NCBI GenBank assembly: GCA_963777045.1
Contig: CAVZPD010000009.1
Coordinates: 371,009 to 435,008, forward strand
Direction: 5' to 3'
Length of the DNA: 64,000 bases
Source: an uncultured Chloroflexia bacterium
Lineage (GTDB): Bacteria > Chloroflexota > Limnocylindria > QHBO01
Shown here: one piece after another, positions 3,100 through 61,137 of the stretch
Layout: each line of letters opens with the position of its first letter
Numbering within the stretch: position 1 is the stretch's first letter
Notes under the pieces: generated by a model
Databases searched by the model: none
What the model was told of the DNA's origin: nothing
What the model saw: only the letters and a program-made list of their open reading frames with translations
Program-made: the position numbers and the translations under genes

Positions 3100-3512
3100 A
3101 TGGACCAGACCGTCTCACTCGTCCTCTTCTCCGGGACGGACGACAAGCTGCAGTCGGCGGCGGTGATGGCCGCCGGTGCGGCCGCCGTCGGAAAGCCGGT
3201 GCACATCTTCCTCCAGTACTGGGCGCTCGACGCCTTCCGCCGGATCGCATCAACAACGACCACGGGCTGTCAGCCGAGGCAGGCCCGGTCGGGCACGCTG
3301 CGGTCGAGGCGCTGCGCGCCGCCGGCCAGGAGCCGTGGTACGAGACGCTGCGACAGGCGAAGGAGCTCGGCGAGGTCGAGATCCAGGCCTGCTCGCTGTC
3401 AATGGACCTTCTCGAAATCAAGCAGGACGACCTTGATCCGCTGGTCGACGGCGTGGAGGGCGTTGCCGCCTTCTTGATGGCTGCCGGCGACGGGCAGGTC
3501 GTCTTCATCTGA
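3100..3512 (+). CDS. DsrE/DsrF-like sulfur relay protein; frameshift near 3245
   Basis: N-terminus MDQTVSLVLFSGTDDKLQSAAVMAAGAAAVGKPVHIFLQYWALDAF is in frame 1. The DsrE-like C-terminus ...WYETLRQAKELGEVEIQACSLSMDLLEIK...VVFI* continues in frame 3 to TGA 3510-3512. Confidence 0.6.
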
Positions 3513-3764
3513 CGACATGTACGCGGAGGCACGAACCGACATGACCATGTCCGCATTGCCCAGCGCGTCGACGCGCGAGGACTCTCCTGCCCGCTCCCGA
3601 TCGTTCGCACCGCCATCGCCATCAAGGCGCTCAAGGCGGGCGAGCTGATCGAGGTGCTGGCGACCGATCCCGGATCGACCAAGGACTTCACCGCATGGGC
3701 CAAGACCACCGGCCACGAGCTGGTCGAGCATCGGTCGACGACGGCGTCTTCCGGTTCGTCCTGA
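3513..3764 (+). CDS. TusA-like sulfurtransferase; start codon unresolved
   Basis: Frame 3 reads ...VDARGLSCPLPIVRTAIAIKALKAGELIEVLATDPGSTKDFTAWAKTTGHELVEH*, with the CPxP TusA motif. There is no in-frame ATG or GTG; a Met in frame 1 at 3517 or 3541 suggests an indel near the start. Confidence 0.5.
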   Translation, partial: RHVRGGTNRHDHVRIAQRVDARGLSCPLPIVRTAIAIKALKAGELIEVLATDPGSTKDFTAWAKTTGHELVEHRSTTASSGSS

Positions 3765-3872
3765 GCGCAAGTGAGGCACCCATACGACGACCATCACCAA
3801 GCCAGAAACCTACCTCCCACCCGAGCTGATGGACGGGCTGGACGACCCGACGCCTGTCGAGGAGCTTGAACC

Positions 3873-4367
3873 ATGGAAGAGGGCGCCAACAAGACCGGCG
3901 AGCTGCTGATCATCTGCGAGAGCGGTGACCTTGAGCGCACCTGGGCGACCACCATCCTCGCTTCCTCGGCCGCGGCGAGCGGCCAGAAGGTGAGCATCTT
4001 CTTCACCTTCTGGGGCTTCTTCCCGCTGGTCAAGCCGGGGATCCGGATCACCGGTGAAAACTGGATGCAGAAGATGCTGTCGTTCATGAATCGGCCTGGT
4101 ATCGACCACGCCAAGACCAGCAAGTTCAACTTTATGGGCATGGGGCCGTGGATGATGAAGAAGCTCGCCAAGCGCTACGGCGTGGCCGAGCCGCGCGAGC
4201 TGTTGGAGATGGCCCAGGCCCTTGGCGTCGCCCTGATCCCGTGCCAGATGAGCATGGACATGATGGGCTTCAAGCGCGAGGACCTGATCGACGGGCTCGA
4301 GGAGCCGGCCGGTGCGGCCACCGTGCTCCAGATGATTGCCGACGGCGCGACGCCGCTGTTCATCTGA
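3873..4367 (+). CDS. DsrE/DsrF-like (DsrE2-type) protein
   Basis: Intact 164 aa ORF of the DsrE/DsrF-like family, embedded in the sulfur-trafficking cluster. Confidence 0.65.
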   Translation: MEEGANKTGELLIICESGDLERTWATTILASSAAASGQKVSIFFTFWGFFPLVKPGIRITGENWMQKMLSFMNRPGIDHAKTSKFNFMGMGPWMMKKLAKRYGVAEPRELLEMAQALGVALIPCQMSMDMMGFKREDLIDGLEEPAGAATVLQMIADGATPLFI

Positions 4368-4392
4368 CGTGACTGAGAAGGAAGGAAGCGCC

Positions 4393-58289: not shown

Positions 58290-58471
58290 CTGCCGATACG
58301 TGGGGCAGATGGTCACCAGACGTGGCTTTCGGGCGCCGGAGCGCCGATACGTGGGGCAGCCGCGAGCACAAACGGCACCTCCGGGTCGCCTTCACGCTCA
58401 CCGCTGCCCGATGTAGCGGCAGATTGTGGCCCGAGCTGCTCCCGGGTGCTGTTCTGCCCTATGTAGCGGGC
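58290..58471. repeat. four degenerate ~50-60 bp tandem repeats, each with a CTGCC-N9-GGCAG mini-palindrome
   Basis: Copies are at 58290-58308 (ctgccGATACGTGGggcag), 58342-58359, 58404-58422 (ctgccCGATGTAGCggcag) and 58454-58471. Shared flanks are GTGGCTTTCGGGCG / GTGTTTCGGGCG. The array lies in the 3' flank of argF next to the IS right end. Confidence 0.5.
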
Positions 58472-58488
58472 CGTGTTTCGGGCGATGG

Positions 58489-59430
58489 CTACGCCAGGAA
58501 CGCCACCAGCAGCGCCTGCTGCGCGTACATCCGGTTCTCCGCCTGCTCCAGCGCAACCGACCGCGGGCCGTCGAGGACCTCGGCGGTGATCTCCTCCCCG
58601 CGGTGGGCGGGCAGGCAGTGCATCACCAGCGCATCGGGCGCGTGGGCAAGCAGCTCGGCGTTGACCTGGTACGGCGCGAACCGTTCGCGACGGGCGGCAG
58701 ATTCGGCCTCGAAGCCCATGCTGGTCCAGACATCGGTGTAGACCGCATCGGCTCCGGAGACGGCTCCGACCGGGTCGATCAGGACCTGGACCGATGCAGT
58801 GGCAAGATCACGAGCGACCGCGATAACCGCGGGGTCGGGCGCGTGCTCGGGCGGGGTCGCCACGCGGACGTGCATGCCGCACAGCGCGGCCGCGATCACC
58901 AGCGAGTGGCAGACGTTGTTCCCGTCGCCCACGAAGGCGAGCGTGCGACCGGCCAGCGAGCCCCACTGCTGGCGCAGGGTCAGCATGTCGGCCAGCGCCT
59001 GGCAGGGGTGCTCGCGGTCGTCGAGCGCGTTGATGACCGGGACCGATGACGCCGCCGCCAGCTCCGCGATGATCCCCGGACTGGAGGCGCGGACCACGAT
59101 GGCATCCACCCAGCGCGACAGGTTGGCGCCGATGTCGGAGGCGGGCTCGCGCTGGCCGAGCTTGACCTCGTCCGCACCCAGGAAGACGGCGTGGCCGCCG
59201 AGCAGCTCGACGCCGATATCGAAGCTCACCTTGGTGCGCAGGCTGGGCTTGTCGAAGAGGAGCGCCACCTGACGGCCGGCGAGCTCGGGTGTGAGCGTGC
59301 CCGCGGCGCGCGCCTCGCGGAGCGCCTGGGCGTGGGCGAGCAGCGCCTCCATGCCCAGCGGTGCCAGGTCGGCGGCGGAGAGGACGTGGTGCGGCGCGCT
59401 AACCGCCGCGCGGGGCAGCGTGGTGGTCAT
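58489..59430 (-). CDS. argF: ornithine carbamoyltransferase
   Basis: Intact 313 aa. MTTTLPRAAVSAPHHVLSAADLAP...SLRTKVSFDIG (STRTR-like)...HCLPAHRGEE.... The ATG overlaps the argD stop. Confidence 0.85.
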   Translation of the reverse strand: MTTTLPRAAVSAPHHVLSAADLAPLGMEALLAHAQALREARAAGTLTPELAGRQVALLFDKPSLRTKVSFDIGVELLGGHAVFLGADEVKLGQREPASDIGANLSRWVDAIVVRASSPGIIAELAAASSVPVINALDDREHPCQALADMLTLRQQWGSLAGRTLAFVGDGNNVCHSLVIAAALCGMHVRVATPPEHAPDPAVIAVARDLATASVQVLIDPVGAVSGADAVYTDVWTSMGFEAESAARRERFAPYQVNAELLAHAPDALVMHCLPAHRGEEITAEVLDGPRSVALEQAENRMYAQQALLVAFLA

Positions 59431-60645
59431 GACGACGCCGCCTGGAGGGCGCGGCGCAGGCGGCGCAGTGCCTCGTCGACCTCCGCCTCGCTGATGGTCA
59501 GCGCGGGGAGGAATCGGAGCGTGGTGTCGCCGGTGGCGTTGATCAGCAGCCCTTGATCGTCGCGCGCCTGCTCCACCGCCTTCTTCGCCCACGGGCCTGC
59601 CGTTTCCAGCGCCAGCATCAGGCCGCGGCCGCGAACCTCGGTGCCGAAGCCGTCGTCCACCAGACGCTGCAGCCCGGCGGCCAGGCGCGACCCCTGCGCC
59701 GACGCGGCAGCCAGCAACCTCTCCGAATCCAGCACCTGCAGCGTGGCGACCGCCGCGGCACAGGCCAGCGGGTTGCCGCCCAGCGTCGTGCCGTGGTCGC
59801 CCGGCTGGAACGCCGAGGCGGACTCCGTCGCCAGGATCGCGCCGATCGGCACGCCGCCGCCCAGCCCCTTGGCGATCGTCACCACGTCCGGCACCACCGG
59901 CGTCTGCTCGAACGCAAAGAAGGTGCCGGTGCGGCCCATCCCGGTCTGCACCTCGTCGAAGATGAGCAGCGCGCCCACCCGGTCGCAGGCGGCACGGGCG
60001 GCTGGACAGGAACTCATCGGTCAGGGGATGGATGCCGCCCTCGCCCTGGATCGGCTCCAGGAGGACGGCGCAGGTCTGGTCGGTCACCGCCCCCTCCAGC
60101 GCCGCGACGTCGTTGCGGGGGACGTGGCGGAAGCCGGCAGGCATCGGCTCGAAGGGAGCCCGGTACTTCGGCTGGCCGGTGGCGGCCAGGGAGCCGAAGG
60201 TGCGGCCGTGGAAGGAGTTATCAAGCGCCACCACCTCGGTCGCGCCGCGCGAACCGCCATGCCGTCGGGCAAGCTTCAGTGCCGCCTCGTTGGCCTCGGT
60301 CCCTGAGTTGGTGAAGAAGGCCCGGTCGAAGGGCGAGCGCTCGAGCAGTTTCTCCGCCAGGTCCAGCTGCGGCAGCGTGTAGTAGAGGTTCGAGACCTGC
60401 AGCAGCGTGCGTGCCTGTGACGCCAGCGCGGCGGCGACCGCCGGATGGGCGTGGCCCAGGACGTTGACCGCCAGGCCGGAGACCAGGTCCAGGTAGCGAT
60501 GGTCCGAGTCGTCCCAGACCCAGCTGCCGGATCCCCGGACCAGGGTGAGCGGCTGCCGGGCGTAGGTGTGCAGGTGGACGCGCGCCTCGCGTTCCTGCGC
60601 GCGGCTGGCGTTGGGATCGGCCGTGGGTCGGGGGTGGAGGACCAT
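59427..60645 (-). CDS. argD: acetylornithine aminotransferase; one frameshift near 60010
   Basis: ATG 60645 gives MVLHPRP...LTLVRGSGSWVWDDSDHRYLDLVSGLAVNVLGHAHP...EVVALDNSFHGRTFG...LEPIQGEGG. It then changes frame to LLIFDEVQTGMGRTG...DVVTIAKGLGGG...*. Confidence 0.75.
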
Positions 60646-61137
60646 GGCCGTGTTCCACCGGCGGAATGGCCGGTCCGGGCCGCGATCCGCCTCCAGCACC
60701 GGTGGCACGTCCTCCCAGGGGATCTCCTCGAAGCCGAAGCGGGCGAAGTAGTCGGGGCGCGCAGTGAGGACGAAGAGGCGCGAGATCCCCGCCCGGGCGG
60801 CATCGCGCACCACGGCGCGGACCAGCACCTCGCCCAGGCCCCGGCTCTGCGCCTCCTTGGCGACCGAAAGCGAGCGCAGCTCGCCCAGGCCGCGGCCGAA
60901 CTCGCGCAGCGCCGCAGTGCCGCAGACGCGTTCGTCGAGGACCGCCACCCGGAAGGATTCGATCTCCGAGTCGATCTCCTCGCGCGACCAGGGGAGGAGG
61001 ATGCCCTGCTGTGCGTAGGTGTCGATCAGGCTCCAGATCGCGTCCGTATCGGTGCCGCGGGCGCGCCGCTGGAACGAGGCGCCGGAGCTGAGGGCGGCAA
61101 TCGTGCCGCCGGCCTTGAGCTGTGCTTCGCCGGTCAT
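60646..61137 (-). CDS. single-domain GNAT acetyltransferase, N-acetylglutamate synthase-like; in frame with argD with no stop
   Basis: ATG 61137 overlaps the argG stop (ATGA). ...ALREFGRGLGELRSLSVAKEAQSRGLGEVLVRAVVRDAARAGISRLFVLTARPDYFARFGFEEI is GNAT motif A. Residue 164 is followed directly by the ArgD Met. Confidence 0.55.

Follow-up and report, generated by a model that had tools for sequence, protein, structure and literature searches.

A 64,000-nt window of a metagenomic contig from an uncultured Chloroflexota bacterium (CAVZPD010000009.1, positions 371,009 to 435,008; coordinates below are those of the window) carries his, trp and aro genes, for histidine, tryptophan and shikimate biosynthesis, whose reading frames are broken by small insertions and deletions, as are those of several other genes. 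We consider it very probable that these frameshifts arose as errors in the consensus of the deposited metagenome assembly, an artefact of a known kind and no biological feature, rather than traces of gene loss. A six-frame Viterbi path, whose codon model was trained on genes that are clearly intact, has to change frame 89 times on the same strand to traverse the window. For the placement of individual events, proteins of relatives were aligned to the window DNA with a frameshift-aware dynamic-programming aligner, syntenic intact orthologues serving as references; the 40.7 kb of coding sequence covered by this alignment contains 75 events, including two at gene edges (61108 and 62461) which we set aside as doubtful, so that the firm count from alignment alone is 73. 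Six further events, three in pheA (which lacks a close reference), two in metY and one in metX, were taken from the frame path together with coverage by hidden Markov model (HMM) profiles, for an overall total of about 79. The single-base frame switches reported in a preliminary description of this DNA are real, but its count of about 35 was too low.

The events are almost uniform in size. Exactly one base is gained or lost in 67 of the 75, as 39 deletions and 28 insertions, the remaining eight being scored as -2/+1; no larger deletion is found among the scored events, all of which involve 1 or 2 nt. The aligner itself does not generate such calls: it returned no event when clean contigs were aligned with each other over 24.7 kb at 56-94% amino-acid identity, and none in 12 intact genes of the window. 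The references for the aro-SDR-trp region were the JGI contigs L083 and L085, in which the gene order is as in the window and all genes are intact. For the his operon we used a clean JGI contig, L093, whose HisG is about 92-93% identical to that of the window, with L091 for hisF and hisIE, and for the ilv and leu genes L001 and L002. As references, L090 and the pair L001/L002 carry frameshifts of their own, and events traced to these were excluded (e.g. 44638/44735, 47016 and 48639).

Once the frames are restored, amino-acid identity to L093 is 72-92%, and the stitched translations, matched against NCBIfam equivalog profiles, give near full-length matches in a single stretch for hisB, hisH, hisF, hisIE, hisG, hisD, hisC, trpB, trpE, trpG-D, trpC, aroF, aroA, aroC, aroE, aroK, aroB, aroQ, ilvE, pheA, metY, metX, argD and the SDR gene. 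That of hisA matches in two stretches, and that of trpA only partially (profile positions 8-183 of 256), being cut by the block end. Both the size of the events and the full-length restoration are as expected of consensus indel errors. That the errors reside in the deposited assembly follows from a public protein call: the 369-aa 'HisF' P0241 is exactly the frameshift-extended open reading frame (ORF) of the window at 6346-7455 (- strand), while HisF of the relatives measures 267-270 aa. This protein and the 307-aa TrpD P0122 each match a window ORF with 100% identity, and one contig of 439,574 bp, deposited at NCBI and ENA, is the source of both.

The damage is concentrated in a single block. 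Between 6,075 and 27,964, a stretch that runs from hisIE to hisG, through a small yerC-like gene, trpA to trpE and the SDR gene, to aroF and on to aroQ, lie 65 of the 75 scored events, at a rate of 3.19/kb compared with 0.49/kb elsewhere, a 6.5-fold difference (binomial p=5e-11). Within the block, a single Poisson rate accounts for the number of events in each gene, including the yerC-like gene and the SDR gene, and this is the indifference to gene identity and function expected of an artefact. Insertions and deletions are distributed patchily (runs test z=-2.7), which fits a situation in which different reads dominate different stretches. The window has a GC content of 72%, and high GC had been proposed as a driver of the errors. 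In 2-kb bins, event density does correlate with GC (Spearman rho 0.75), but GC is rejected as the cause once the block is taken into account: in a Poisson regression, a term for 'inside 6-28 kb' improves a GC model strongly (p=2e-7), whereas GC adds nothing to the block term (p=0.23). High-GC bins hold 0.41 events/kb outside the block and 3.52 inside.

The sequence context of the events bears on a different technical origin, the miscalling of homopolymer lengths where G or C is repeated in a GC-rich genome, as is familiar from 454, Ion Torrent and older Nanopore data (R9), which would likewise produce frameshifting indels of one base. A few events do fall in short runs, as where C5 has become C4 at 18045 or G4 has become G3 at 7889, and at the CCC/GG junction at 36825. 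However, events are not enriched in homopolymers at any window size when compared with all covered positions (Mann-Whitney p 0.1-0.3), no run in the affected genes is longer than 5 nt, and bins of high GC are clean where they lie outside the block; the expectation that the breaks would sit in homopolymer runs is thus not borne out. Many events concern isolated bases, such as CGC[A]CGC at 24972 and TCG[C]GAC at 27844. As a first, uncalibrated classification could over-fit reference residues, we calibrated a slippage test by planting known indels into intact genes of the window. An optimal solution with an identical neighbouring base, compatible with slippage, is lacking for 16 of 27 insertions, against fractions of 0.42-0.53 when random events are simulated and 0.10 when slippage is, and for 24 of 38 deletions, against 0.43 and 0.18, respectively. 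With 59-63% of events lacking such a solution, they behave like random, non-templated indels and not like slippage, and we regard homopolymer miscalling as very unlikely.

What would genuine decay have left behind? In pseudogene-rich genomes such as those of Mycobacterium leprae, Sodalis and recent endosymbionts, frameshifts are mixed with nonsense mutations and larger deletions, and the ratio of nonsynonymous to synonymous substitution rates (dN/dS) moves towards 1. The window shares with them the frameshifted biosynthetic genes with recognisable domains and the involvement of whole pathways, but differs in its lack of stops, its low dN/dS, its essentially 1-nt events and a density that is uniform across genes. 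Substitution:indel ratios of 5-10:1 are typical of mutation-accumulation studies, and 1.8% of random substitutions in the restored codons of the dense block would create a stop; with 65 real indels, genuine decay at these ratios predicts 6-12 stop codons. There are none in the 6,850 restored codons, for which the probability is between 0.003 and 7e-6. Measured against the closest relatives, the broken genes have a pooled dN/dS of 0.18 and the intact ones 0.12; these values, far below 1, indicate strong purifying selection in both groups. Nor is there the broad spectrum of indels, with slippage-type single-base events, that marks pseudogenes: events of 1-2 nt, mostly non-templated, are all that is seen.

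Comparison with relatives adds two further lines of evidence. First, the his, trp and aro orthologues are intact and syntenic in contigs from five relatives (L083, L085, L093, L101 and L103), and the events are private to one assembly, as expected of an artefact. Second, private frameshifts in other essential genes are found in three more of the long public contigs from this lineage: L002 has seven in ilvN, ilvC, leuA, leuB and cimA (12094-17499), which give rise to a spurious 1,233-aa 'leuB-cimA-ilvE' ORF, L001 has two in ilvD (8456 and 9390), and L090 has five in his genes (7041-11101). These contigs come from ENA ERZ25039494, ENA ERZ25039492 and JGI 3300036859 (L002, L001 and L090, respectively). 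That each long contig should independently have lost a different core pathway is implausible; that all share a technical weakness is not. An accurate short-read copy from the same species was not present in the collections searched, where the best matches reach 88-90% DNA identity; at this level are L086 and L087, short JGI contigs that we presume to be short-read assemblies.

Several observations nevertheless weigh against consensus errors as the explanation. The dense block is exactly coextensive with one functional module (His, Trp and shikimate); pheA, at 50.4 kb and outside the block, has three events in 0.8 kb, as a gene-loss scenario would also predict; the events lack the homopolymer association of classic Nanopore consensus errors; and dN/dS is slightly higher in broken genes, which can be explained by residues misplaced at the junctions and by constraint specific to each gene. 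On the first two of these, and on the mostly intact branched-chain and arginine genes, one could build a genuine recent pseudogenisation, in which the lineage had become auxotrophic for histidine, tryptophan and aromatic amino acids and its costly his-trp-aro block, together with pheA, were decaying through real frameshifts. Such decay is hard to reconcile with the absence of stops and of larger deletions, with a dN/dS of 0.18 and with events unlike slippage mutations; the block rate of damage extends to two genes that encode no biosynthetic enzyme, the yerC-like and the SDR gene, there are isolated events in leuD, ilvD, cimA, ilvE, argD and the DsrE and TusA genes, the relatives keep all affected genes intact, and other contigs are broken elsewhere. 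We therefore judge it highly improbable. A variant in which the indels are real, the His-Trp-shikimate block and pheA having been lost recently through a local indel-prone process other than slippage, such as an error-prone repair or recombination tract of ~22 kb, would need a loss so recent that neither substitutions nor nonsense codons nor a relaxed dN/dS yet showed, and we give it a very slim chance at best. Finally, programmed recoding, by ribosomal frameshifting or transcriptional slippage, could in principle yield functional enzymes from these genes, and the restored proteins do look functional, but nothing more speaks for it: the ~79 sites are of both signs and at random positions, their local contexts share no motif, and none of the compared relatives has a shift at any of them, so that its likelihood is practically negligible. 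The view of the preliminary description, that these are indel errors of the assembly and not pseudogenes, is thus supported, indirectly but by independent tests, by the missing stops, the low dN/dS and the nearly exclusive 1-nt size of the events, and is further backed by their uniform Poisson density within the block, by the intact orthologues and by the private frameshifts in other contigs.

How could consensus errors have become so concentrated? Most probably, noisy long reads at low depth were assembled into the source contig of a Candidatus Limnocylindria-like Chloroflexota bacterium, leaving random single-base insertions and deletions in the consensus. Their density, about 8 times higher in the stretch of ~22 kb at 6.1-28.0 kb, would be explained if this stretch had weaker read support or had remained unpolished, its length being on the scale of the reads; the his, trp and shikimate genes lie there by chance, and their pathways would for this reason appear destroyed. 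Sequencing platform and coverage trough are both inferred here from the pattern of the errors. They agree with the report that indels which fragment genes persist in metagenome-assembled genomes (MAGs) built from Nanopore reads alone at less than about 40x (PMC9262707), and with a large soil MAG project that used Flye with one round of Medaka, in which coding density was lower at lower coverage (PMC12313526). L001 and L002 carry contig_N names in the style of Flye, as do MAG records labelled MFD, which apparently come from this soil project. The taxonomic setting is indicated by the acetolactate synthase of the window, which resembles proteins of Candidatus Limnocylindria and Chloroflexota MAGs, with a top non-self match at 96% protein identity and many at 80-87%.

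A structural fault of the assembly could be substituted for low depth, either as a hybrid or patchwork contig in which an unpolished long-read bridge joins accurate segments, or as a consensus of co-assembled strains that confused the polisher. The error rate rises at ~6 kb, is uniform from there and drops at ~28 kb, insertions and deletions are patchy, and even the 'clean' part retains ~0.4-0.5 indels/kb, all of which would suit such a fault; yet nothing in the sequence separates it from a plain coverage trough, no search for repeats or junction signatures having been made at the edges of the block, and we hold it to be a possible, if rather unlikely, origin. With the indel-fragmented long-read assemblies (Nanopore or PacBio continuous long reads) known as the 'IDEEL' problem and addressed by proovframe and Kastor (PMC9262707; bioRxiv 10.1101/2021.08.23.457338; PMC12007338), the window has in common the splitting of canonical genes by single bases, a long contig, errors private to the assembly and full-length restored proteins, and such errors are known to be worst at low coverage. 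It differs in that the errors are not tied to homopolymers and are packed about 8-fold into one block of 22 kb instead of being evenly spread.

All genes that had been listed as broken are indeed broken, and all those listed as intact (leuC, ilvB, ilvC, leuA, leuB, argG, argF and trpD) are intact; to the former we add hisF, the yerC/TrpR-like gene, a TusA-like gene and possibly aroE, with the events detailed below. The dense block opens with the his genes, all on the - strand. In hisIE (6075-6657), three events at 6213 (-1), 6284 (-2/+1) and 6642 (-2/+1) are placed against L091, and the HisIE profile is covered; in hisF (6648-7455), the frameshift-aware alignment finds an extra base at ~6669, near the C-terminus, through which the stop codon is lost. 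Five events in hisA (7482-8193), at 7746 (-1), 7889 (-1), 7969 (+1), 7991 (+1) and 8055 (-2/+1), are placed against L093. By alignment, hisH (8202-8800) has one event at 8589 (-1), hisB (8803-9388) one at 9316 (-2/+1) and hisG (11828-12684), with 92% identity to L093, one at 12437 (-1). Between the latter two, hisD and hisC (9391-11802) together carry ten events against L093, at 9436, 10230, 10400, 10519, 10602, 10981, 11001, 11201, 11437 (+1) and 11729, and their restored product is 83% identical to that of L093 in amino acids. In this clean contig the two genes share one frame of 813 codons without an intervening stop (2548-4988), and the restored window does likewise, so HisD and HisC may be fused.

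Still on the - strand, the small yerC/TrpR-like gene (12704-12987) has one event at 12959 (-1), and trpA (13175-13896) has three by alignment, at ~13256, 13302 and 13328. The trpC-trpF-trpB region (13917-16587) has 11 events, at 14352, 15233, 15322, 15429, 15578, 15651, 15833, 15856 (+1), 15902, 16159 and 16395, and a DNA alignment to L086 reproduces these gaps. In L083 (11014-13707), L084 (11041-13707) and L085 (10999-13683) this region forms a single ORF of 888-897 aa with IGPS, PRAI and PALP domains, and with frames restored the window aligns continuously over trpC, trpF and trpB without a stop; judging from these ORFs, a triple TrpC-TrpF-TrpB fusion seems typical of the lineage. The next gene, trpD (16597-17604), is intact: the block rate predicts 3.2 events for it, and their absence (P=0.04) is within chance. 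In trpG (17613-18193), the alignment places one event at 18045 (-1), the shortened C run mentioned above, and in trpE (18197-19604) four events, all +1, at 18512, 18816, ~19006-19072 and ~19420-19430.

From here the block continues on the + strand. The SDR oxidoreductase gene (20004-20671) has two events by alignment, at 20310 (+1) and 20518 (+1), and a profile match. In the aroF-chorismate mutase fusion (21358-22665), three aligned events are all -1 (21590, 22360 and 22575), as are the four in aroA (22704-23983), at 23092, 23127, ~23175 and ~23340. The five events in aroC (23998-25185), at 24616 (+1), 24770 (+1), 24789 (+1), 24839 (-1) and 24972 (+1), are found at identical positions with L083 and with L085 as reference. 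For aroE (25191-25943), a possible compensated pair at 25314 (+1) and 25349 (-1) is seen with L085 and not with L083. The aroK-aroB fusion (25972-27530), which like that of aroF and chorismate mutase is present in L083 and L085, contains five or six events, at 26165 (-1), ~26454-26475 (+1), ~26567-26600 (-1), ~27100-27103 and 27371 (+1). The block ends with aroQ (27547-27964), where the extra base reported near 27845 was found at 27844, outside any homopolymer. In L083 and L085, pheA follows aroQ; in the window it lies 22 kb away.

Outside the block, events are isolated for the most part. On the + strand, a DsrE-family gene (3100-3509) lacks a base near 3242, by comparison with its orthologue in L001, and a TusA-like gene (3567-3763) lacks one near 3730 by alignment. 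Alignment likewise places two extra bases, 7 nt apart, in leuD (29165-29763, -), at 29579 and 29586, and single extra bases in ilvD (36222-37854, +), cimA (47209-48820, +) at 47392, ilvE (48781-49798, +) at 49558 and argD (59433-60591, -) at 60003, the last two genes having profile matches as well. The extra base in ilvD, which had been attributed to a G-run, is present at ~36825-36829, in ATTCCCGGCGACC, but the site is a CCC/GG junction and no G-run. In pheA (50358-51187, +), the frame path makes three changes, each +1, near 50432, 50508 and 50818, and all three junctions lie within the prephenate dehydratase profile match; in metX and metY (54093-56366, -), it makes one near 54889 and two near 55612 and 55963, respectively, which fall within full-length MetX and MetY profile matches. 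An internal control is provided by ilvB, ilvN, ilvC, leuA and leuB (41091-47209, +), with no event in 6.1 kb. The events in ilvE, pheA, metX and metY may form a second, weaker error patch at 49500-56400, within which lie genes for hypothetical lipoproteins, at 51.5-53.7 kb, that have no references.

Some features of the window bear on its gene content rather than on its errors. A stretch of ~5 kb between leuC and ilvD (31225-36160) is missing from L001 and L002, where leuC adjoins ilvD; it encodes a Phd/YefM-PIN toxin-antitoxin pair, a dienelactone hydrolase and two membrane transporters. Elsewhere in the window, an ECF-type sigma factor (Sigma70_r2, r4) is followed by a 617-aa protein without a Pfam match, possibly an anti-sigma factor or secreted (38086-40709, -), both ORFs being intact. 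Between metY and argF, an ORF of 437 aa that is intact and has the domains HTH_29 and HTH_32 (56730-58043, +) probably encodes an insertion sequence (IS) transposase or an integrase. The argG product and a GNAT acetyltransferase are a single 624-aa call in L085 (16670-18544); in the window (60631-62429, -) each has an ORF of its own, the two differing in frame and being divided by a stop. A tRNA scan of the window found none.

The value of these findings is one of quality control only. Error density in assemblies of this kind can be strongly block-wise, and genome-wide averages hide local damage that erases pathways. Homopolymer-aware fixes would miss errors that lie outside homopolymers, while frame-aware correction against orthologues would repair them. 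Public collections already contain broken proteins from this contig, among them a truncated TrpD and the 'HisF' of 369 aa. Taken as deposited, the contig would yield wrong figures for gene number, pseudogenes, coding density and completeness and, above all, a wrong metabolic inference; the organism would, for instance, be called auxotrophic for histidine, tryptophan and phenylalanine.

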